In this document: one piece after another, positions 5,049-16,737 of the stretch
Position numbering within the stretch: the stretch's first letter is position 1
How the letters are laid out: each line of letters starts with the position of its first letter
Assembly (NCBI GenBank): GCA_964620335.1
Contig: CAZUHR010000001.1
Span: 1 to 30,960, forward strand
Direction of reading: 5' to 3'
Source of the DNA: an uncultured Desulfobacteraceae bacterium
GTDB taxonomy: Bacteria > Desulfobacterota > DSM-4660 > Desulfatiglandales > Desulfatiglandaceae
Length of the DNA: 30,960 bases
The notes under the pieces: model-generated
Told to the model about the DNA's origin: nothing
The model's database searches: none
The model's input: only the letters and a program-made list of their open reading frames with translations
Position numbers and translations under genes: made by a program

Positions 5049-5187
5049 GGCAGGTAAATTGTAAAGACACTTCCTTGACCTGGCGTGCTCTCAACCGATA
5101 CCCGGCCTCTGTGTGCCTGGACAATATACTTGACAATGGCAGGGCCCGGACCTGTGCCGCCTAATTTGCGGCTTCTCGCCTTGTCCA
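5049..5187 (-). pseudogene. Degenerate second copy of the phoR 3' end (HATPase G2 box to C-terminus)
   Basis: 139 bp aligning without gaps to 7701-7839 (15 mismatches by hand count). Encodes [46 protein letters not shown], with GLGL changed to GPGP. No upstream kinase domains. Confidence 0.9.
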
Positions 5188-5420
5188 TTCGGCAGTAAAA
5201 TCACCTAGGCAATCACCATATACTTCGTGAAAATCCTGGTACTTCATTACCTGATCAGCCAAGCTCTTCACATTTGCAATTAAATTTGCAATATGTCAAA
5301 ATACTGATGTTAAATATAATTTCACTCCTCAAAAAAGCGAGGAAACCAGAGGTGTTAGACACAACTAAATTCATTTAAAGTCGTGAAATTTGATTTCTAA
5401 TATAGCTCGGAGGGGAATTT

Positions 5421-7690: not shown

Positions 7691-9466
7691 CTAATCTTTT
7701 GGCAGGTAAATTGTAAAGACGCTTCCCTCCCCCGGCGTGCTATCAACCGAGACCCGGCCCCTGTGCGCTTGGACAATATGTTTGACAATGGCAAGGCCCA
7801 GACCTGTTCCGCCTAATTTGCGGCTTCTCGCCTTGTCCACACGGTAAAAGCGCTCAAAAAGGCGAGAAAGGTGCTCTTTGTCTATACCGCAGCCCTGGTC
7901 GCGGACAGAGATAATGGTTTCATCATCTGTCTGTTCAGCCTTTATCTGGATAGCACTGCCGTCGTTACTGTATTTGATGGCATTATCCAGGAGATTTACC
8001 ACGGCCTGTTCAAGGAGTGGGTGATTAATTTCTGCCACAATGTCTTCATTGCCCGACAATTCAAGATTGATCCGTTTGGAAGCAGCTTTCACCTCACAGA
8101 GCTGGATCGCAGTCTGGAGTACATCCTTAACACGACCCACAGCAAGTCCGACTTCTTCTTTTTCAGCCTTTTCCTCAATTCTGGAAAGACTCAGAAGATC
8201 TTCAATAATAGTATTAAGCCGATTCACATGCTTCATTATAATTGCCAGGAACCGCTCTGTATCCTTGGGATCCTTTATCGAGCCTGCACGAAGGGTTTCC
8301 ACAAATCCACTAATTGCCGTAATAGGTGTCTTTATTTCATGGGAGACGTTGGCGACGAATTCGCGACGGATATTTTCAAGTTTGCGGAGGCGTGTCACAT
8401 CATTTAATACAATGAGTGCGCCGATATGATTACCCTCAGCGTCATGGAGGACCGTACCATGCCCATTCAAAATCCTTTGTCCATCAGAGCGTAGTGCAAT
8501 ATCTCCTTCGAAGGCATTCTGGCTTGATAATGCGTTTGCTACAAATCGCAGTAAAGCGGTATTTCTTGCCACCTCCTGAATACTCCGGCCCTGTGCCTCA
8601 GAAGGACTGGTTTTTAACATTTGTGCAGCGGCATTATTCATGTTGATTATACGCTCATCCATATCTACGGCAATAACCCCTTCAACCATACTTGAAAGAA
8701 CGGCTTTAAACTCGTTACGCTGCTTCACGACCGCCTTTATCCGGTCATCAAGCTGGGCCGCCATCTGGTTCATCGCTTCTGCGAGACCCTTCATCTCTTC
8801 GGAATCGGGAACCGAAAGCCTGTATTCCAGGTCACCACGTGCAAAATGCTCTGAACCCTGTCTCATCTCCTCTAATGGACGACTGATCCGGCGAGAGATC
8901 AGCAGGCAGAGAATCGCGGCAAATAGCGATATGATCAGGCCTCCAACAGCGATCTTGATCTGAATGTCCTTTAAAGCATTATCAATTGCAGTGACTGGTA
9001 TGGATGTGCGGATAATAGCAATCGTTTGTGCGCCTTTTCTGGCTGGTATCGCCGTATACATCATGTTCTTTTCAAGGGTCCGGCTGTACCTTGTTGACAT
9101 TCCTAAGCGTCCGGTTAAGGCCTGTAAAATCTCAGGGCGGTCCGCATGACTATCCATACCAGCAGGAACGCCTTCGGAATCACCGATGACTTTGCCTGAA
9201 GGCAGTATCACTGTAATGCGAGTGGAGGAGCGTATGCCTATGTTTTTGCACAATTGATCAATATGGTCTATATCAGGAGGATCAAGGTGTTCCAGTATTT
9301 GTTGTTCAAAAAGAAGGGCCCTTGCTTCGAGACCTGCCGCGGTTTGTTCAAGAAAGAAATGTCTCAAGGATTTCGATGCATACCATGTGACGGCTACAAG
9401 AGATACGATTATGATCAGCAGATAGGAAGGATAGAGTTGCCAGAGCAACCGTTTTTTTCTTGCCAT
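7691..9466 (-). CDS. phoR: Phosphate regulon sensor histidine kinase (TM, periplasmic domain, HAMP, PAS, HisKA, HATPase)
   Basis: H-box [17 protein letters not shown]-box [11 protein letters not shown]1 [20 protein letters not shown]2 [12 protein letters not shown]; 3 bp downstream of phoB. Confidence 0.93.
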
Positions 9467-9469
9467 GCG

Positions 9470-10156
9470 CTACTCCCTGAAACGATATCCTATACCTCTT
9501 ACCGTTTCAATATACCTGCTGGCAGGTCCCAGTTTTTTCCTGAGACCAACGATCTGAACATCCACCGCCCGATCAGTGACAAAGTAATCATCACCTCGCA
9601 CCGCATCCACAATTTGCGAGCGCGTAAACACCCATCCCGGTCTCCTTGCCAAATAACCCAGGATACCAAACTCCGTAAAGGTCAACTCAACGGGTTTACC
9701 CTCAACGAGCACCTCATGACGGCCGGGATGTATTACAAGATCATGAATTTTAAGAACCGATGACTCCTCTGCTGTTTCTTTTACCTTTCTGCGCAAAACC
9801 GCTCTTACCCTCGCAACCAAAATCCTTGGACTGAAAGGCTTGGTGATATAATCATCGGCTCCAAGTTCCAGGCCTGTGACGATATCCGCTTCTTCCCCCT
9901 TGGCTGTCAACATTATGATGGGAATGTCTCTGGTCCTGGAATCATTTCTAATTATCTTTGTGACTTCCAAGCCGTCTATTCCCGGAAGCATAAGATCCAG
10001 AACTATGAGGTCCGGAAGTTCGGATGAGGCCAACCTCCAAGCCTCTTCACCACTTGCGGCACCCATAACACTATACCCCTCTCTTGATAAGTTGAACCTC
10101 ACCAATTCAAGGATATCTTCTTCATCTTCTACAACAAGTATACGTTCCTTTGTCAT
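9470..10156 (-). CDS. phoB: OmpR/PhoB-family response regulator of the phosphate regulon
   Basis: Receiver (VVEDE, VLDLMLPG, MLTAK, DDYITKPF) plus winged helix (LTFTEF, RAVDVQIVGLRKKL, IETVRGIGYRF); paired with phoR near pst. Confidence 0.92.
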   Translation of the reverse strand: MTKERILVVEDEEDILELVRFNLSREGYSVMGAASGEEAWRLASSELPDLIVLDLMLPGIDGLEVTKIIRNDSRTRDIPIIMLTAKGEEADIVTGLELGADDYITKPFSPRILVARVRAVLRRKVKETAEESSVLKIHDLVIHPGRHEVLVEGKPVELTFTEFGILGYLARRPGWVFTRSQIVDAVRGDDYFVTDRAVDVQIVGLRKKLGPASRYIETVRGIGYRFRE

Positions 10157-10215
10157 GATGATATTCGTCTTTGGGACATATAGTGTTTCAAAATAAAAAA
10201 TTTTTAAACTTTAAT

Positions 10216-10244
10216 GTTAGTATTAGATTAGAATTGTGTAAATC
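10216..10244 (-). promoter_or_regulatory. Pho-box-like repeats upstream of phoB
   Basis: Minus strand GATTTAC-acaa-TTCTAAT-ctaa-TACTAAC (11-bp period). Shares the exact 13-mer tagattagaattg with the pstS promoter (10224-10236 vs 5000-5012). Confidence 0.55.
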
Positions 10245-10272
10245 TTTTATTAAGCAGGAAAAAAGCAGTGCT

Positions 10273-10749
10273 TTATCTTCTTACGACCCATCCTGACTTC
10301 ATAATCAGGAAAACAACTGCCATCAGAAGATACAACATCATAAAGCCCAGGTGAGAAATATCTATGAAAAGCGTAAAGCCGGGCGAAAAAACCACATCAG
10401 GCAGATTCTTCAAGACCCTGAAAATTCCGGTTATAATGATACCCCCCAGCATGGCAATTCGCACATAGGCCGAATATGTCAGACTGAATTCCTTTCTGCC
10501 CGAAAGTATGAAATCCATTATGACATAGGACAAAAGGCCCAAGAGAAAAATGGCACCGATGTAATGAATATAGTGAGTCAGATAAAAATCGGCTGACCAT
10601 CCCATCCCAGGAATATCGGATACGTAATAGCGTTTAAATATAGGCATCTGGCCAAATCCGGTAAATGCCATTAAAATGAAGGTCGCTATGTATATCCGGA
10701 ATAGGACTTTCCTGCCTCCTGACAAATTCCGGGTATCAATGGATTTCAT
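10273..10749 (-). CDS. Cytochrome b-like membrane protein (FdnI/b561-like), partner of the adjacent 4Fe-4S protein
   Basis: About four hydrophobic segments with His residues (THYIHY, DISHLG). Likely start MKSIDT at 10749 after a GA-rich RBS; the 10956 start in the ORF track overlaps the upstream gene and an intergenic repeat. Confidence 0.7.
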   Translation of the reverse strand: MKSIDTRNLSGGRKVLFRIYIATFILMAFTGFGQMPIFKRYYVSDIPGMGWSADFYLTHYIHYIGAIFLLGLLSYVIMDFILSGRKEFSLTYSAYVRIAMLGGIIITGIFRVLKNLPDVVFSPGFTLFIDISHLGFMMLYLLMAVVFLIMKSGWVVRR

Positions 10750-10819
10750 TTCCCCTTCCCCTCTGATCCCCCCTTGAATATTAAAGTTATTGCTGACATA
10801 TAAGTCTCGCCTTTCGGTT

Positions 10820-10870
10820 ATTTGAATTTGAACAATTTGAAAATTATTTCGAATTTCGATATTAGGATTC
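10820..10870. repeat. Degenerate ATTTCGA-type heptamer repeat patch
   Basis: atttcga-atttcga at 10846-10859 flanked by atttgaa-like units, in the gap between the FeS and cytochrome b genes. Confidence 0.35.
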
Positions 10871-10879
10871 TGTGCATCT

Positions 10880-11866
10880 CTAATCCCCTTTGTCACTAGA
10901 ACCCCATGGTATTTCACCTTTAGCGGATTTATAAGCTTTGCCCACTGCTGCTGCAATTCCAGCTATCGGCGCAATCATCATCGCCTTTGCCAGATTATCA
11001 GCATGGGCCATGGAATCTTCTACAGGTTTTAGATGCGGCTTCCCGGGACCTTTTTCAATAGCCTTATTCAGTTCCTCGAAAGGCACCGGAGAAACATAGA
11101 TCGTATTCGTTCCGCCGTTCTCCTTTTCACCATAGATATAACCGTTTATTTCTTTCACAATGGCATGGGCCTCTTTGAGAATTTCATCTCTGGGACCAAT
11201 CTTCTGTACATGCTCCGGACATACTTCAATGCAGGCAGGCAACTCTCCCTTTTCGATCCGATTATAGCAGCGGTCGCATTTATACATCACCCCATTTCCG
11301 GCAAATGAAGGCAGAATATCCAAGTACATTCCAACACCGGTCTGTCGCTCGGGAATATGCCAGGGACACACCACCTTACACTTTGAACCCCCGAGGCAGA
11401 CATCCGCATCAATCCGGGTGATCCCATTTTTCAATTTGCGCGCAGCACCCCATGGACATAGATCCGCACATGGAGGATTCTGGCAATGCATGCAGCGACG
11501 GGGAAAGGTAAAGGTCTCTTCCTTACCGTCTATGGTTACAGTAGCTTCCTGGATAAAGAGCCAGTTATAAGGCGTCAATCGATCTGTGACATCCCTCTTA
11601 TCAGACCAATCAGAAACCTTGACTCTGCCCGGATACATTTTAGGAAAGGGTTTTTTGGGTTCAGGAAATTTGTACCCGTTGACTTCACGGCATGCCTCGA
11701 CACACGCCCCACACCCAATGCATTTCCTGACATCAATAAGTGTTGCCAGCTCTTTCTGGTTGCTACCTCTTACAGCAGCAGGAAGCGGAACTGAGGAAGC
11801 GGCTATGACGCCTGCTGCAGCCAGGCCACCTTTGATGAATGATCTTCGCGAGATTTTTCCGGCCAT
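10880..11866 (-). CDS. Tat-exported four-cluster 4Fe-4S protein (DmsB/HybA/NrfC-like) with C-terminal membrane anchor
   Basis: SRRSFIK twin-arginine signal; CIGCGACVEAC, CMHCQNPPCADLCP, CLGGSKCKVVCP, CDRC...PACIEVCP; hydrophobic tail MMIAPIAGIAAAVG. Confidence 0.9.
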   Translation of the reverse strand: MAGKISRRSFIKGGLAAAGVIAASSVPLPAAVRGSNQKELATLIDVRKCIGCGACVEACREVNGYKFPEPKKPFPKMYPGRVKVSDWSDKRDVTDRLTPYNWLFIQEATVTIDGKEETFTFPRRCMHCQNPPCADLCPWGAARKLKNGITRIDADVCLGGSKCKVVCPWHIPERQTGVGMYLDILPSFAGNGVMYKCDRCYNRIEKGELPACIEVCPEHVQKIGPRDEILKEAHAIVKEINGYIYGEKENGGTNTIYVSPVPFEELNKAIEKGPGKPHLKPVEDSMAHADNLAKAMMIAPIAGIAAAVGKAYKSAKGEIPWGSSDKGD

Positions 11867-11892
11867 TGCAATATCTCTTTATACACCGGTGT

Positions 11893-12255
11893 CTAAAAAG
11901 TAAACACCTTGCACTCTGGATCCGTCATCATATCTACAAGGACACCACCACCAGATACCACAGAACCTTGAATGCATTCATCCGGAGATATCAGGCGTTT
12001 GTCGGCACAGGCCTCACATACATGTATCGGTGTTTTTTTCGCAATTAGCTTGTCTAAAAGATCTTTCATATCTTCTCCCGTCGAAGATCGGATTCCCTCC
12101 GCCATTCCTAATTGAGCCCAATGGACAGCATCGTCTATCAGAAAGACCACTACATGATGACCCTTTTCCGCAGCAATGCTTGCAAACTGAAATGCCCTCG
12201 TTGCAGCCCCTGATTTTTCAAACCCCTTGGAAATCACAAACACGAACTTTTTCAT
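11893..12255 (-). CDS. DsrE/DsrF-like (sulfurtransferase-fold) protein
   Basis: FVFVISKG...AFQFASIAAEKGHHVVVFLIDDAVHW...IHVCEACADKR pattern typical of the DsrE family. Confidence 0.85.
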   Translation of the reverse strand: MKKFVFVISKGFEKSGAATRAFQFASIAAEKGHHVVVFLIDDAVHWAQLGMAEGIRSSTGEDMKDLLDKLIAKKTPIHVCEACADKRLISPDECIQGSVVSGGGVLVDMMTDPECKVFTF

Positions 12256-12432
12256 CTCCCTATTCTCCTCAAATTAATGATTTTGCCCTCACTACAAAGG
12301 CTAGGACCCGACACCTAATCTTTACTATAATGATAGCAAAAAGGCTATAAGGTTACAAAGTTGAGTGAAATAATCATGGGCATTGGGGACCAAATATCAG
12401 TCTTTTGGGGAAAAGCCGATACAGGAGGATGT

Positions 12433-12678
12433 CTATTTCGTTCTCCGGTTGAGTAATTGCCTAAGATTTGATCTCAGGCGCTCGCGAATATAAGATGGCA
12501 CCGTCTCCTTTCCCGCCTCTTTGCACAGTTGGATAGTCTTTTTTAGGGAATCAAGGCATTCCCGGCATTCCCGGCATTCTTTAAGGTGGGTTTCGATTTC
12601 ATAGCAGATCTCATCATCCAATTCACCATTCAAGTATTCTGATATTCTTTCAAAATATTTCTTACAGTCCTCCTTCAT
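12433..12678 (-). CDS. Zinc-binding anti-sigma factor (zf-HC2/ZAS), soluble
   Basis: C...ISEYLNGEL...HLKECRECREC motif; 4-nt overlap with the ECF sigma gene; no TM segment. Confidence 0.88.
   Translation of the reverse strand: MKEDCKKYFERISEYLNGELDDEICYEIETHLKECRECRECLDSLKKTIQLCKEAGKETVPSYIRERLRSNLRQLLNRRTK
12555..12579. repeat. 9-bp in-frame tandem repeat in the anti-sigma gene (encodes ECRECREC)
   Basis: ggcattccc ggcattccc ggcattc. Confidence 0.8.
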
Positions 12679-13283
12679 TGGATCTTCCCCTCTACATAAT
12701 GATTCGATATCTTTTTCCTCAAGAATAAGCGTGCGCGGTGCAATCTTGTCTTGACCGATTGTACGGATATTCCAAGAATTTCGGCCGTCTCTTCCGTGTT
12801 GAAACCCTCAATATCTCTAAGGTTAAAGACCAAGCGATATTTAGTCGGAAGAGATAGTATGGCGGCATCGATCACCTGTTTCAACTCGGAACGCAGAACA
12901 TTATCAGAGGGGTCATCAGACCAGTCCGGTATCTCGTATCTGGCATGGTTGCCGTTCTCATGGACAAAAGAATCTAATGATAATTCTTTTTCCGGTTCAC
13001 ACTTTTTCTTCCTCCGCTTCCTGATACAGGCCCTTGCTGCAATCTTAAAAAGCCAGTTTCTTAGCTTGGCCTCTTCCCTGAATCTATCCAGATATCTAAA
13101 TGCATTCAAAAATGTCTCCTGTGCAATATCTTCAGCATCCTGTACATGACCGCACATCTTCAACCCGAAGGTAAACACCTGGTTCTCATATCGCTCCACA
13201 ATCTTCTCCATGGCCTCTATGGAACCTGCCTTAAATTCGGCGATTAAATTATGATCGCTGGTTTCATCAGCCGTTCGGTTCAT
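12675..13283 (-). CDS. ECF (sigma-70 group 4) RNA polymerase sigma factor
   Basis: Region 2 DAEDIAQETFLNAF...WLFKIA; region 4 LPTKYRLVFNLRDIEGFNTEETAEILGISVQSVKTRLHRAR. Confidence 0.95.
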   Translation of the reverse strand: MNRTADETSDHNLIAEFKAGSIEAMEKIVERYENQVFTFGLKMCGHVQDAEDIAQETFLNAFRYLDRFREEAKLRNWLFKIAARACIRKRRKKKCEPEKELSLDSFVHENGNHARYEIPDWSDDPSDNVLRSELKQVIDAAILSLPTKYRLVFNLRDIEGFNTEETAEILGISVQSVKTRLHRARLFLRKKISNHYVEGKIQ

Positions 13284-13471
13284 GCCAAACCTGGTGTCTT
13301 ATGTCGTAAATTCGCATACTTACATCATTTAGTCTATAGGCCTTATTATAGCCCGCATTTATACCGAGGCACAAGGCGCAAGGGCTGTGAAATGCACATG
13401 CTATCCTTCTATTCCTTGGGCCTTTTGTCTGTGATCAGGCATGGTTGGTACCGCAATATGTAGGATGCAGA

Positions 13472-14173
13472 CTACTCATTTTTGCTTTCATCCATCCTGC
13501 CAAGTTCTGCAAGTTCTTCCAGTCCGTCGCGATTGAGCAACTTTATCTTGCGACCGTCCACTTCAATTAAGCCTAGCTCCGTCATCCTCGCAAAAATTCG
13601 CGACAGTGTCTCCGGGATTGTACCAAGAAGGCTTGCAAGCTGTCCCTTTGAAATATTTAGAATTACACTGTCTTCAGTTTCCTCTTCATCTACAAGGTAA
13701 ATCAGATATCCGGCCAAACGGCCCGGGACCTCTTTTAGTGAGAGATTTTCTACCTGAACAGTGAATGCGCGAAGCCTCATCGAAAGAACCGCCAACATGT
13801 TCATTGCCAAAGACGGAATCCTGGTTATAAGGTCAACAAATGCCGCCCTTGGGAAAAACAAGACATGGCTTTTGGCAATTGCCTGTGCGCTCGCAGGATA
13901 CGACCGGCCCGCATAAACAGCAACCTGGCCGAACGGCTCTCCTGGTCCGTAAATATGGAGAATCTGTTCCTTTCCTTCTGCTGAGACCTTAAATATTTTT
14001 ACAAGCCCTTCCACAACCACATAAAAACCCTTCCCTTCGTCCCTATCCGAAAAAATGATCTTACCCTTGTTGAACCACCTGCCAACAGCAATATTTTTTA
14101 TTTCATTTAGCTGGTTTTCAGGAAGGCCGCTGAAGCTGGGAACGCGTGATATTATATCCAGAAATGTTTCCAT
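13472..14173 (-). CDS. Crp/Fnr-family transcriptional regulator (HcpR/Dnr-like)
   Basis: cNMP-binding fold (GLVKIFKVSAEGKEQILHIYGPGEPFG); HTH SKGQLASLLGTIPETLSRIF; lacks the FNR N-terminal Cys cluster. Confidence 0.92.
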   Translation of the reverse strand: METFLDIISRVPSFSGLPENQLNEIKNIAVGRWFNKGKIIFSDRDEGKGFYVVVEGLVKIFKVSAEGKEQILHIYGPGEPFGQVAVYAGRSYPASAQAIAKSHVLFFPRAAFVDLITRIPSLAMNMLAVLSMRLRAFTVQVENLSLKEVPGRLAGYLIYLVDEEETEDSVILNISKGQLASLLGTIPETLSRIFARMTELGLIEVDGRKIKLLNRDGLEELAELGRMDESKNE

Positions 14174-14477
14174 AATAACAAGTCTAATTCTTCGGTCTCA
14201 AGCCCTGCACTACTCGTTTCGCAACGCTTCAATGTGGGGTCGAGACGGGCCGGATTTTTTAATTTGAGGCATAGCCAATTATCCGGTTAATCAATTGATA
14301 AAGTGAGTTAAATTGACTTTTAATAAATATATAACCAAGTGATCTTATGGTCAATTTAAAAACAGATGAAGCAAACAGGGACCTCAGGTACCGGTCGTCA
14401 AAGAAATTTACAAGGGGTTGCATTTGATTTCCTGGTTCGATATCCTTAAAATTAGGTTCATCTTCAAACCCAGAACC

Positions 14478-14520
14478 CCTGCTTGTGGCAGACAGGCCTG
14501 CCCGCCTTACGGCAGGCGGG
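14478..14520. repeat. Two tandem REP-like GC-rich palindromes (CCTGCC...GGCAGG type)
   Basis: cctgcttgtggcagacagg followed directly by cctgcccgccttacggcaggcggg. Confidence 0.5.
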
Positions 14521-14535
14521 CTTTCTCCCAACTAA

Positions 14536-14564
14536 TTGGGAGAAGAACCAAAAAATATTATAAT
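14536..14564 (+). promoter_or_regulatory. Possible sigma-70 promoter for the molybdoenzyme gene
   Basis: TTGGGA-N17-TATAAT about 95 bp upstream of the ATG; the -35 match is weak. Confidence 0.3.
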
Positions 14565-14658
14565 CATGATGTATAAGGTCGGATAACGATTTAAAAAAAT
14601 TTTAGGATATAAAAAGGCTTATTGCCTAATATGAATGAAGAAAGGATAGGATTTCCAA

Positions 14659-16737
14659 ATGGCCCAAAATATTCGTTGGATAAAGACTCATTGCGCAAGG
14701 ATGGACCATGGCGGATGTGCATTGCTTGTAGGAGTGAAGGATAACAGGATTATCAAGGTCAAAGGTGACCCGGATGGCTATTTAAACAAGGGTTACATAT
14801 GCCCAAAAGGTCTCGCTTCGCCTGACCGCCTCACCCATCCCGACCGCCTCAAACATCCCCTTAAAAGAACGGGAAAAAGGGGTGAGGGAAAATGGACGAG
14901 GATTTCCTGGCAAGAGGCTCTTGAGGAAATAGCAGAAAACCTGCACAGGATAAAAGAAAAATACGGCGCGAGATCGGTTGCATTTGGCCTTGGCATGCCT
15001 AAAGGTCTGGAGCACTTTGTCTTGATCCGTCTGGCCAATCTTTTTGGCTCCCCCAATGTTATCACCTCTCAAGATGTATGTCATGCACCTCGTGAGATAA
15101 CTGGCCTCCACACCTGCGGCTTCTATCCTGTGGCTGACTTGCATCACAGAAGCAAGCTCATTCTTTTATGGGCGAGCAACATAACCTCCACCAACGAAGA
15201 GGGTGAGATAAACAGCATGCTCTTAAGACAATTAAAAAACAGAGCAGAACTGATAGTTATTGACCCGAGAAAGATTGATTTGGTCACAAGGTCCAAAAAA
15301 TGGCTTCAAGTAAGGCCCGGAACGGACCATGCACTGGCACTGGGACTTTTAAATGTCATTATCGAAGAGTCTTTATACGATAAGAACTTCGTTGAAAAGT
15401 GGACCTACGGGTTTGAAGATCTTAAAAATCATGTAAGAAAATACACCCCTGAAAAAGTATCTGAGATAACCTGGGTCCCACCCGACCTCATAAGGGAGAC
15501 GGCGAAACTTTATGCAATATCAAAACCGGCTGTGATCCAATGGGGAAATCCAATTGAACACAACATCCATACATTTCATATAGCAAGGGCATTGATCTGT
15601 CTGATGGCCATATGTGGTAATCTCGACATTCCAGGCGGCAACGTTCAGGCGAAAGACCCGAAGATCATGGGCCTGGGCCCTTTTGTACGGGCCGATCTCT
15701 TCCCAAACAAATGGAAAGAGATGATCAGCACCTATTATCATACCATACCCAGATTAATGACCACTCCCCCTGCCTTTTTCAGAAAGGCGATACTTGAAGG
15801 GATCCCTTATCCGGTTAAAGGATTCTACGCCATGTGTGCAAATCCAATGTTGTCTTATGCGGACAGCAGGCAAACCTATGAGGCGTTCTTGAACCTTGAT
15901 TTTATTGCTATTGCCGATTTATTTATGACTCCAACCACAGCAATGGCGGATATTGTATTACCGGTTGCAACCCAGTTCGAATTTAACGATATCGGCCACT
16001 TCGGCCTCGGTCACGGTTTTATTCTGGCCCGGCCTAAGGTGGTTGAGCCTCCGGAAGAATGCTGGCCCGACATGAAGATACTAAACGAATTGGGAAAGCT
16101 TATCACTCCTGCCGAATACTGGCATGATGATTATAGCGGGTTTTTAGAAGATGTTCTCAAGCCAAGCGGCCTGACATTCGACCAGTTCGTTGAAAAGGGC
16201 TATCTGAAAGGCCCTGAAACATACAAGGGTTATGAAGAAACGGCCTTTAGAACGCCCACCGGCAAGGTAGAGCTTAAATTGAGTACGGCCGAGAAATTCA
16301 AGCTTCCCCCATTGCCTGAATTTGATGGCCTTCCGGAAGAAGATAGTGCGGAATATCCTCTCGTACTAACAAGCTCCAAAAGCCAATATTTCCTCCATTC
16401 ATCCTACAGGTGGGTAAAAAGACTACGAGAAAAAAGACCGGATCCAAAGGCTGAAATCCACCCGGAGACTGCTTCAAAACACAGAATCAAAGAAGGCGAT
16501 CCTGTTGTTATTGAAACCAGGTACGGCAAGATAACCCATATTGCGCATCTTACAGATATTGTGGATCCAAGGGTAATAAGCGCCTCACATGGATGGTGGT
16601 TCCCTGAAGCCAATGCGGAGTCGCTCTTTGATTGGGAAAGATCCAACTTCAACATGCTCACCTCCACGGAGAAACTGAGCAAACAGTTTGGCACTCCCAA
16701 CCTCAAAGGAATCGGCTGCAGGATAAGGAGGAATTAA
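14659..16737 (+). CDS. Molybdopterin (bis-MGD) oxidoreductase, DMSO-reductase superfamily, acetylene-hydratase-like branch; no export signal
   Basis: N-terminal FeS region THCARMDHGGC...GYICPKG, DRLKHPLKRTGKRGEG.W.RISW.EAL, VIDPR, VRPGTD.ALALG, ADIVLPVA, FRTPTGKVEL, C-terminal YPLVLTS...HSSYR...EIHPETA...HGWW. Confidence 0.9.
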   Translation: MAQNIRWIKTHCARMDHGGCALLVGVKDNRIIKVKGDPDGYLNKGYICPKGLASPDRLTHPDRLKHPLKRTGKRGEGKWTRISWQEALEEIAENLHRIKEKYGARSVAFGLGMPKGLEHFVLIRLANLFGSPNVITSQDVCHAPREITGLHTCGFYPVADLHHRSKLILLWASNITSTNEEGEINSMLLRQLKNRAELIVIDPRKIDLVTRSKKWLQVRPGTDHALALGLLNVIIEESLYDKNFVEKWTYGFEDLKNHVRKYTPEKVSEITWVPPDLIRETAKLYAISKPAVIQWGNPIEHNIHTFHIARALICLMAICGNLDIPGGNVQAKDPKIMGLGPFVRADLFPNKWKEMISTYYHTIPRLMTTPPAFFRKAILEGIPYPVKGFYAMCANPMLSYADSRQTYEAFLNLDFIAIADLFMTPTTAMADIVLPVATQFEFNDIGHFGLGHGFILARPKVVEPPEECWPDMKILNELGKLITPAEYWHDDYSGFLEDVLKPSGLTFDQFVEKGYLKGPETYKGYEETAFRTPTGKVELKLSTAEKFKLPPLPEFDGLPEEDSAEYPLVLTSSKSQYFLHSSYRWVKRLREKRPDPKAEIHPETASKHRIKEGDPVVIETRYGKITHIAHLTDIVDPRVISASHGWWFPEANAESLFDWERSNFNMLTSTEKLSKQFGTPNLKGIGCRIRRN

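Follow-up and report, generated by a model that had tools for sequence, protein, structure and literature searches.

A candidate two-subunit iron-sulfur/cytochrome b module under probable ECF sigma factor control in an uncultured Desulfobacteraceae bacterium

In formate dehydrogenase N (Fdh-N) of Escherichia coli (structure 1KQF), the catalytic subunit FdnG is joined by FdnH, a periplasmic iron-sulfur (FeS) subunit with several clusters and a C-terminal helix, and by FdnI, a four-helix cytochrome b with cytoplasmic termini. A second group of described systems, DsrO-DsrP of DsrMKJOP, HmcB-HmcC, QrcC-QrcD and HybA-HybB of E. coli, combines a ferredoxin of the four-cluster type, exported by twin-arginine translocation (Tat), with a quinone-interacting membrane subunit. 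These have no molybdenum or tungsten (Mo/W) enzyme of their own and work with cytochromes c or hydrogenase, and their membrane subunits are of the haem-free NrfD type. In this paper we describe a gene pair that resembles both groups. It lies in the segment 10273-14173 of a DNA stretch of 30,960 nucleotides (the window) from an uncultured Desulfobacteraceae bacterium of salt-marsh sediment. The segment holds six open reading frames (ORFs), all on the minus strand and all confirmed to be present. In the order of transcription they encode a Crp/Fnr-family regulator, an extracytoplasmic function (ECF) sigma factor, a soluble cysteine-rich zinc-associated anti-sigma (ZAS) factor, a DsrE-like protein, an FeS protein and a small membrane protein (Table 1). 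Domains were called with Pfam (E <= 0.01 for the membrane protein) and with the NCBIfam equivalog cut-offs, and they agree with the gene names and the common orientation given in a preliminary description of the segment, the cytochrome b being recognised by remote homology only. We think it fairly probable that the FeS and membrane proteins form a two-subunit electron-transfer module of the membrane, free of any catalytic subunit and controlled by the sigma factor and its ZAS partner.

The pair shares with FdnH/FdnI the periplasmic multi-cluster protein, its C-terminal helix and the four-helix membrane partner with cytoplasmic termini. It differs in that there is no FdnG-type catalytic subunit, that the FeS protein has a Tat signal of its own and that one of the cluster sites has three cysteines. 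Unlike FdnI, the membrane protein has neither the ligands of haem bC nor the loop and C-terminal extensions. Because the haem bC ligands H18 and H169 are missing, a transmembrane redox loop of the Fdh-N type is impossible here. In contrast to DsrOP, HmcBC, QrcCD and HybAB, the membrane subunit is predicted to be an FdnI-type cytochrome b with one haem, no cytochrome c gene is found nearby, the NCBIfam scores stay below the cut-offs, and control appears to lie with an ECF sigma factor.

For the regulatory genes the closest described system is SigR-RsrA of Streptomyces. As in that system, a small soluble anti-sigma factor with the pattern Cys-x(25)-His-x3-Cys-x2-Cys is encoded directly downstream of an ECF sigma factor, and autoregulation is indicated in the part of the family in which the target motif also precedes the sigma gene itself. 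SigR is nevertheless a more distant match of the sigma factor than SigW, AlgU and sigma-E are, and the anti-sigma factor falls below the RsrA equivalog cut-off. Unlike that of SigR, the visible regulon is a periplasm-facing electron-transfer module and does not consist of thioredoxin or mycothiol genes; redox sensitivity is predicted only. The SigR promoter consensus also differs from the motif TGnAACC-N16-nTCn described below. By analogy, the architecture of the pair resembles FdnH/FdnI minus FdnG and haem bC, its function may resemble that of DsrOP, HmcBC and QrcCD with another membrane subunit, and its regulation resembles SigR-RsrA.

A conserved pair of iron-sulfur and membrane proteins

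The preliminary description had read the six genes as one self-contained module, and this is not what the gene neighbourhoods of relatives show. The membrane protein has 168 relatives in species-representative genomes, all of them in Desulfobacterales, Desulfatiglandales and related groups, and the counts out of 80 given below refer to the 80 best loci among these. Their neighbourhoods reveal two tight pairs and two clade-specific additions. Since only the FeS and cytochrome b genes on the one hand, and the sigma and anti-sigma genes on the other, stay together, and dsrE and crp are clade-specific, the six genes are not one co-conserved module.

The FeS gene stands immediately upstream of the membrane gene in all 76 testable loci, with FeS proteins that are 70-93% identical in Desulfobacterales and Desulfatiglandales alike. 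At most 23 nucleotides separate the two genes in 74 of 78 loci, where they do not overlap outright, and a wide gap of 67-223 nucleotides is found only in the clade of the window (the window itself and loci L001, L002 and L006). The family as a whole is widespread and very highly conserved, and falls into about 850 clusters at the 90% identity level and 269 at the 50% level. Two of its members are natural fusions of the FeS and membrane proteins (P0184, 490 residues; P0214, 618 residues) with the expected topology. As far as sequences can tell, it follows from these fusions that the FeS and membrane proteins work together in one complex, arranged as predicted.

The FeS protein carries the marks of an exported, membrane-held subunit. 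Residues 1-34 form a Tat signal (SRRSFIK) whose twin arginines, phenylalanine and lysine are invariant in 68 sequences, and a hydrophobic C-terminal segment at about 293-313, followed by a basic tail, corresponds to the anchor helix of FdnH and HybA. FdnH (1kqf_B) is the best match in the PDB (2e-20). Among the NCBIfam models the protein matches HybA (1.5e-42), HmcB (2e-40) and FDH-beta (4e-28), and also DsrO and QrcC, in every case below the cut-off. Fifteen cysteines are invariant in the 68 sequences and fall into four groups, CxxCxxCxxxC (I), CxxCx4CxxxC (II), C-x5-C-x3-CP (III) and CxxCx11CxxxCP (IV). The second cysteine of group III is replaced by Gly160, at a position where FdnH, ArrB and PsrB retain cysteine and EbdB (ethylbenzene dehydrogenase beta) has histidine. 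In subunits of the NarH/EbdB type, among them those of type II enzymes such as EbdB, the loss of the second cysteine of this group leads to a [3Fe-4S] cluster beside the membrane subunit. Because Gly160 represents the same kind of change, we predict that the protein binds three [4Fe-4S] clusters and one cluster of the [3Fe-4S] type. The earlier label of a periplasm-facing four-cluster ferredoxin agrees with the Tat-dependent location but calls for a qualification, as there are 15 rather than 16 invariant cysteines, with three groups complete and group III incomplete.

The membrane protein was less easily placed. The listed ORF (10273-10956, with a TTG start) is too long, as homologues begin at the ATG at 10749, which leaves 158 residues. 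Database labels range from hypothetical to 'FeS-binding protein' and 'heme A synthase', and no Pfam family covers the protein. It has no direct match in Pfam or NCBIfam and none in the PDB even when a family profile is used. A search with the family profile against 1.8 billion representatives gathered 269 clusters, among them distant members of PF01292, the prokaryotic cytochrome b561 family, which includes Ni-hydrogenase cytochrome b and FdnI. The members reached in this way (P0247, P0251 and P0237) have PF01292 matches of their own of 1e-17 to 1e-23, and P0247 matches FdnI of E. coli Fdh-N directly (2.4e-8). When the close family was aligned with the PF01292 members and FdnI, hhalign returned a probability of 99.6% and E = 1e-23. 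The name cytochrome b used in the preliminary description is thus borne out by profile homology to PF01292 and FdnI, but not by any direct match.

The positions of the haem ligands suggest what kind of cytochrome b this is. We take the ligand numbering and roles in FdnI to be those of structure PDB 1KQF. In an alignment of 77 sequences, the ligands of haem bP, H57 and H155, then correspond to H62 and H133 of the window protein, and the ligands of haem bC, H18 and H169, correspond to F17 and F147; H169 also belongs to the menaquinone site. Among the 80 orthologues H62 is found in all and H133 in 79, while the H18 position holds K or R and the H169 position F, L or C, never histidine. The pattern of four histidines and two haems that characterises PF01292 and FdnI is therefore reduced to the equivalents of H57 and H155. 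A third histidine, the family-specific H59, is present in 79 of the 80 orthologues, and there is no conserved cysteine. Two very strongly conserved loops, GFGQMPIFKRYYxxDIPGMGW and KNLPDVVFSPGFT, are periplasmic by the positive-inside rule. Judged by these residues, the membrane subunit should be a truncated FdnI-type cytochrome b that binds one haem near the periplasmic face. Since the equivalents of H18 and H169 are lost, the cytoplasm-side quinone site of Fdh-N is impossible in this protein.

That the operon lacks a catalytic subunit had already been pointed out for the window, and the observation can now be extended to the family. No catalytic subunit, whether of the Mo/W bis-pyranopterin guanine dinucleotide (Mo/W-bisPGD) type or of the NiFe type, adjoins the pair in any of the 76 testable loci. 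The same is true of a di-haem, full-length PF01292 relative (P0247; locus L081, 1864-4623), which adjoins an FeS protein of 45% identity with the same three-cysteine group and is followed directly by tatC and then tatA.

These observations bear on the question whether the pair might simply be a beta/gamma anchor that holds a periplasmic enzyme of conventional type at the membrane, with the gene for the catalytic subunit in another part of the genome. Such an enzyme might be a formate dehydrogenase, an [NiFe] hydrogenase or a Mo/W reductase, the last of which could even be exported by means of the Tat signal of the FeS protein. The closest characterised relatives, FdnH/FdnI, HybA and HmcB, are in keeping with such a role, and the very high conservation of the FeS protein surface suggests a protein partner. 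There is also a signal-less Mo/W enzyme 500 nucleotides away on the other strand. Its gene (14659-16737, plus strand) is divergent from crp and followed by PsrA, and its product is a Mo/W-bisPGD enzyme whose nearest solved structure is acetylene hydratase (1e-86). We rejected this enzyme as the missing subunit, as it lacks a Tat signal and is acetylene-hydratase-like, and as its gene is on the opposite strand and shares its location with the pair in only one other locus (L006). Besides the lack of a catalytic gene next to the pair or its di-haem relative, the loss of the cytoplasmic haem speaks against a classical Fdh-N-type redox loop, and control by a stress-type sigma and anti-sigma factor would be unusual for a core respiratory enzyme. 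We consider it unlikely that the pair is an anchor of this kind.

The sigma factor, its anti-sigma factor and their candidate promoter

The sigma factor consists of sigma-2 and sigma-4 domains only. It exceeds the cut-off of the superfamily model TIGR02937 (108.7 bits against 42.9), scores below the cut-off in all NCBIfam equivalog models and has SigW, AlgU and sigma-E as nearest structures. The main text of the ECF re-classification paper mentions no named ECF group that matches it. We found 321 relatives in species-representative genomes, and an anti-sigma gene adjoins the sigma gene in all 77 loci examined.

The best PDB match of the anti-sigma factor is RsrA (5frf), and RsrA is also its best match in NCBIfam. 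Its residues C5, H31, C35 and C38 align to the zinc ligands of RsrA and are 93-100% conserved, although the score against the RsrA equivalog model TIGR03988 (43.7 bits) is under the cut-off of 62.5. Among 43 orthologues C5, C25, H31, C35, C38, C41 and C52 are all at least 91% conserved. There is no membrane segment, and the longest hydrophobic run is two residues. The preliminary description of a soluble ZAS factor is in agreement with this and with the RsrA-type set of Cys/His/Cys/Cys ligands. Because these ligands are joined by three extra conserved cysteines, the most economical inference from the sequence is that the factor responds to thiol oxidation or persulfidation.

The sigma and anti-sigma genes are next to the FeS and cytochrome b genes in 24 of the 80 loci. 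In 17 of these they stand upstream, and in the other 7 they follow downstream, in the order FeS-cytochrome b-sigma-anti-sigma. A minus-strand promoter had been proposed ahead of dsrE, and this candidate turns out to be a conserved motif of the ECF type among relatives. Of 73 loci, 41 carry the motif, TGnAACCTTTT-N10-GnCTCTT (core TGnAACC-N16-nTCn), ahead of the FeS gene or, in the window clade, ahead of dsrE, and they do so at fixed distances from the start codon. The reverse strand of the same 73 loci gave 0 matches, and shuffled sequences gave a mean of 1.2 and a maximum of 7. A position weight matrix made from the motif sites has hardly any matches away from this position in 1.1 Mb of loci. 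When the window was scanned with it, the promoter site of Table 1 was the only strong match (17.9 bits; the next best site reached 10.5).

The motif also connects the two pairs where they are apart. It is present in many loci without an adjacent sigma gene, and in about 19 of 24 such loci an orthologous sigma and anti-sigma pair is found elsewhere in the assembly; on chromosome OY759599.1 the sigma gene lies at 2.29 Mb and the FeS gene at 7.95 Mb. In 15 loci the motif occurs 32-39 nucleotides upstream of the sigma gene itself, including the unlinked loci L104, L105, L110 and L113. Where the sigma genes come after the pair, all four of the seven loci that have at least 180 nucleotides of contig upstream of the FeS gene (L073, L074, L077 and L079) bear the motif before it. 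Because the same motif precedes orthologous sigma genes, the sigma factor very probably drives dsrE, the FeS gene and the cytochrome b gene. To judge from these sequence comparisons, the pattern is the one typical of an ECF sigma factor that controls its own gene, with the FeS and cytochrome b genes as its main visible target. Around the unlinked sigma genes no further regulon members were seen, the anti-sigma gene being the only conserved neighbour.

A simpler explanation would be that the six genes are chance neighbours (crp; sigma and anti-sigma; dsrE; FeS and cytochrome b) without shared regulation. It is true that only sub-pairs are conserved, that most genomes have the sigma pair and the FeS pair at unlinked sites and that the motif count within the window alone is at chance level. 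However, the motif is specific in orientation and position across 41 loci and common to the sigma genes, and the 24 of 80 loci in which the sigma and anti-sigma genes adjoin the pair show two different gene orders. Chance seems to us a very improbable explanation.

Our literature searches did not find a described FeS/cytochrome b system under ECF control. ECF54 has been noted beside a 4Fe-4S protein, but it is actinobacterial and lacks an anti-sigma factor, and we rejected it as a described match. Two further observations concern the loci with sigma genes. In several loci of the order FeS-cytochrome b-sigma-anti-sigma (L072-L079 and L043), a conserved ORF for a hydrophobic peptide of about 30 residues (MKE...ILLQAYILPKLGIST), followed by the palindrome TGACTGAAAGATTCTTGTCAGGTGACA, lies between the cytochrome b and sigma genes. 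In locus L089 (3119-4349) the sigma and anti-sigma genes are followed by a membrane gene truncated at its 5' end (residues 58-158) and the FeS gene is missing; this locus is either degraded or misassembled.

Table 1. Positions of the genes, the promoter and the spacer of the segment in the window
Feature	Position	Strand	Evidence and remarks
Four-helix membrane subunit, truncated FdnI-type cytochrome b, predicted mono-haem, 158 aa	10273..10749	-	Remote homology, alignment
AT-rich spacer between the FeS and cytochrome b genes, 130 nt, with short palindromic repeats	10750..10879	-	Single-copy in the window
Tat-exported FdnH/HybA-like FeS subunit, 328 aa	10880..11866	-	Fer4_7, Fer4_11, TAT_signal
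DsrE-fold YchN-like CxxC protein (C80-E-A-C83), 120 aa	11893..12255	-	PF02635 3.3e-23
Candidate ECF-type promoter of dsrE-FeS-cytochrome b	12329..12358	-	-35 TGTAACC (12357-12351), 16-nt spacer, -10 ATCA (12334-12331)
Soluble Cys-rich ZAS anti-sigma factor, 81 aa	12433..12678	-	zf-HC2 2.4e-9; 4-nt overlap with sigma gene
ECF (group 4) sigma factor, 202 aa	12675..13283	-	Sigma70_r2 5e-16, Sigma70_r4_2 4.5e-18
Crp/Fnr-family regulator, 233 aa	13472..14173	-	cNMP_binding 5.5e-23, HTH_Crp_2 1.5e-17

Lineage-specific neighbours and surroundings

The dsrE gene, inserted between promoter and FeS gene, is particular to the clade of the window. An orthologue stands between the anti-sigma and FeS genes in only 3 of the 80 loci (L001, L002 and L006), and in the window the gap to the FeS gene measures 26 nucleotides, exactly as had been stated. 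The protein has no signal peptide. Its best PDB match is E. coli YchN (1jx7), with which it shares the DsrE fold, the build as a single protein of 120 residues and an aligned CxxC motif. Unlike DsrE and TusD it reaches no equivalog level (28.9 bits against TusD, under the cut-off of 89), and no genes for DsrF/H or TusB/C partners are found in the window. CxxC-bearing orthologues (L161-L168), 70-88% identical, are widespread in Desulfobacterota. Some are found with glutaredoxin, the beta subunit of ferredoxin-thioredoxin reductase and a thioredoxin reductase-like protein, others in an HdrA/CCG-like set with a second DsrE protein. Further contexts are a 744-residue fusion of a multihaem cytochrome c and a cytochrome b, and an SBF-family transporter. 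The contexts with glutaredoxin, the reductase subunit and Hdr-like CCG proteins point to thiol/disulfide chemistry for the DsrE-like protein, as far as gene neighbourhoods can indicate it.

Proteins of thiol and sulfur metabolism recur near the FeS and cytochrome b genes of other clades as well. We found thioredoxin in 9 loci, DsrE-family proteins, a B-box-like cysteine-rich small protein and, next to the Crp orthologue, a GAF-adenylate cyclase in 8 loci each, a CoADR/Nox-like flavoprotein in 7, and TusA and OsmC in 6 each; a flavodoxin-like protein is also recurrent. The thiol and sulfur genes are often directly upstream of the pair and in the same orientation. Such neighbours suggest a role in thiol, disulfide or sulfane-sulfur stress. 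A separate observation comes from Desulfarculus baarsii (CP002085.1; L173, 4886-7843), where an HdrD-like Fer4/CCG protein is encoded after the pair and a divergent Fur/FeoA-domain gene before it.

The preliminary description went further and proposed a system that links persulfide handling to the quinone pool. In a fuller form of this model, the DsrE-like protein would handle persulfide or sulfane sulfur in the cytoplasm, and the FeS protein and the cytochrome b would provide the coupling to the quinones. Several observations would fit this. By the short gap and the shared promoter, dsrE appears to be co-transcribed with the pair in the window clade, and the surroundings of the pair repeatedly include thiol reductases and DsrE-family, TusA and YedE-like proteins. 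Orthologues of the DsrE-like protein also lie beside another cytochrome b-containing protein and Hdr-like genes, and Desulfarculus has the HdrD-like protein mentioned above. The topology, however, speaks against such a coupling. The DsrE-like protein is predicted to stay in the cytoplasm while the FeS protein is exported by Tat, and the cytoplasm-side haem and the quinone-site histidine are lost, so that the membrane subunit, without conserved cysteines or cytoplasm-side haem ligands, offers no evident electron path to the cytoplasm. In addition, dsrE occupies this position in just 3 of 80 loci, and the protein is YchN-like with a CxxC motif and fails the DsrE and TusD equivalog models. A direct hand-over is topologically unlikely, and the proposed coupling as a whole is in our view distinctly improbable. 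A looser link to persulfide or sulfur is kept alive by the recurrent thiol and sulfur-carrier neighbours, which suggest it. Because the neighbouring thiol and sulfur proteins are cytoplasmic, the FeS protein is periplasmic and the cytochrome has no cofactor ligands on the cytoplasmic side, we consider co-regulation more likely than a direct transfer of electrons or sulfur between these proteins and the FeS wire.

The Crp-family regulator belongs to the clade-specific neighbours outside the conserved core. Orthologues are near the FeS and cytochrome b genes in 9 of the 80 loci, in three arrangements. The protein has no cysteine at all, and the N-terminal cysteine cluster of the FNR type is absent. 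Its best PDB matches are regulators that bind cyclic nucleotides (cNMP) and DNR, with DNR (3dkw) in third place at 1.2e-25. The preliminary description had brought up regulators of the HcpR/Dnr type and their response to nitrosative stress, but for this protein such a reading would be tentative at most. We found no TTGAT-N4-ATCAA-like site (at most two mismatches) and no inverted repeat in 12256-12432 or 13284-13471, no FNR/CRP-type box in three intergenic regions, and no conserved motif in an alignment of crp upstream regions. In seven loci (L014, L018, L022, L023, L025, L029 and L031) a GAF-domain adenylate/guanylate cyclase with a cysteine-rich insert in its GAF domain is encoded downstream of the pair, and in several loci it adjoins the Crp orthologue. 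The combination of this cyclase with Crp suggests a layer of cNMP signalling in those lineages.

The six-gene segment lies between phoBR-pstSCAB-phoU on one side and the divergent Mo/W enzyme gene on the other. No intrinsic terminators were found in 10100-14700, no Rfam RNA element matched, the crp/Mo-enzyme intergenic region included, and no tRNAs were found. We found no RNA sequencing runs that contain the locus, which is present only in DNA metagenomes from salt marsh and sediment. The 485-nucleotide intergenic region between crp and the Mo/W enzyme gene holds two neighbouring GC-rich perfect hairpins at 14487-14544, GCCCGCCT/AGGCGGGC and TTCTCCCAA/TTGGGAGAA, which have no Rfam match. Further away, a direct repeat of 144 nucleotides with 88% identity (5049-5192 and 7701-7844) has one copy at the 3' end of the phoR-like kinase gene and the other upstream of pstS. 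The 2.5 kb between the copies hold two plus-strand genes, for a 4HB_MCP-like protein and TrkH. The arrangement has the look of an insertion in which the 3' end of phoR was duplicated.

Proposed role of the module

In the arrangement that we propose, the Tat-exported FeS protein would face the periplasm, held by its C-terminal helix, and sit on a four-helix cytochrome b derived from FdnI. Haem b, the [3Fe-4S]-type cluster and the three [4Fe-4S] clusters would form, in this order, a wire for electrons in one or the other direction that ends at the periplasmic surface, where it would meet a partner or substrate that has no gene nearby. Because the cytoplasm-side haem and the quinone-site histidine of FdnI are gone, quinol/quinone exchange should take place near the periplasmic face, and the module would then be non-electrogenic, a valve and not an energy-conserving loop. 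The neighbouring ECF sigma factor would drive expression from the TGnAACC-N16-nTCn promoter, with the RsrA-type anti-sigma factor holding the sigma factor until its zinc-thiolate site is oxidised or persulfidated. In the clade of the window, a cytoplasmic CxxC protein of the DsrE/YchN type would have been placed behind the same promoter and the Crp regulator upstream, both as lineage-specific additions. The sequences show the homologies, the ligand patterns, the architecture, the co-conservation and the conserved promoter, and on this basis we propose the cofactors, the coupling to quinone, a direction of electron flow, the thiol or sulfane-sulfur stress signal and the physiological role.

Several points weigh against this proposal. 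The coupling of sigma factor and promoter, and the induction by stress, are predictions from the comparison of loci. The -10 element of the window clade is ATCA and not CTCT, the same site would also pass for a sigma-70-like promoter (TTGTAA-17-TATCAT), and the sigma gene of this clade has no upstream motif. About 30 of the 73 loci, the more distant ones, are without the motif and lie beside sigma-54 activators with PAS domains or rich in cysteine. Control by this particular sigma factor is therefore not universal in the family; a strict search for -24/-12 promoters in the loci with sigma-54 activators found none. On the side of the proteins, the AlphaFold2 model of the membrane subunit, built with 32 close homologues, has four helices with low confidence (a predicted local distance difference test score of 61), and a Foldseek search of the model against the PDB gave nothing below E = 0.9. 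Haem and cluster content is predicted from ligands alone. Quinone binding is likewise a prediction, as the sole FdnI quinone-site residue that can be mapped is absent from the membrane subunit.

Even so, the reading that appears most likely from the sequences is that the module moves electrons between the membrane and a partner or substrate in the periplasm, with menaquinol/menaquinone engaged at a site on the periplasmic side, and that it is induced by thiol or oxidative stress. Its role might then be to keep either the quinone pool or a redox partner in the periplasm in balance when the cell meets oxidative or sulfur stress. We can also suggest, much more tentatively, a more specific version of this role. 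The pair might be a non-electrogenic valve between menaquinone and periplasm, deployed by an ECF/ZAS switch that senses thiols or sulfane sulfur when sediments become oxidising or rich in polysulfide, with sigma-54/PAS or cNMP/Crp circuits taking over this control in other lineages. The FeS protein or a soluble periplasmic carrier would be the terminal reductant, and the module would represent a type that was previously undescribed.

Marine and salt-marsh sulfate reducers have many membrane redox complexes of uncertain partnership and purpose. The pair described here may offer an experimentally tractable entry to the question how electron flow in the periplasm of strict anaerobes is rewired when thiol or oxidative stress occurs, because it combines an FdnI derivative without the cytoplasmic haem, which is never found with a catalytic subunit, with a defined sigma factor, anti-sigma factor and promoter. 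It also provides a clean candidate regulon for an uncharacterised pair of ECF sigma factor and soluble ZAS factor outside the Actinobacteria.

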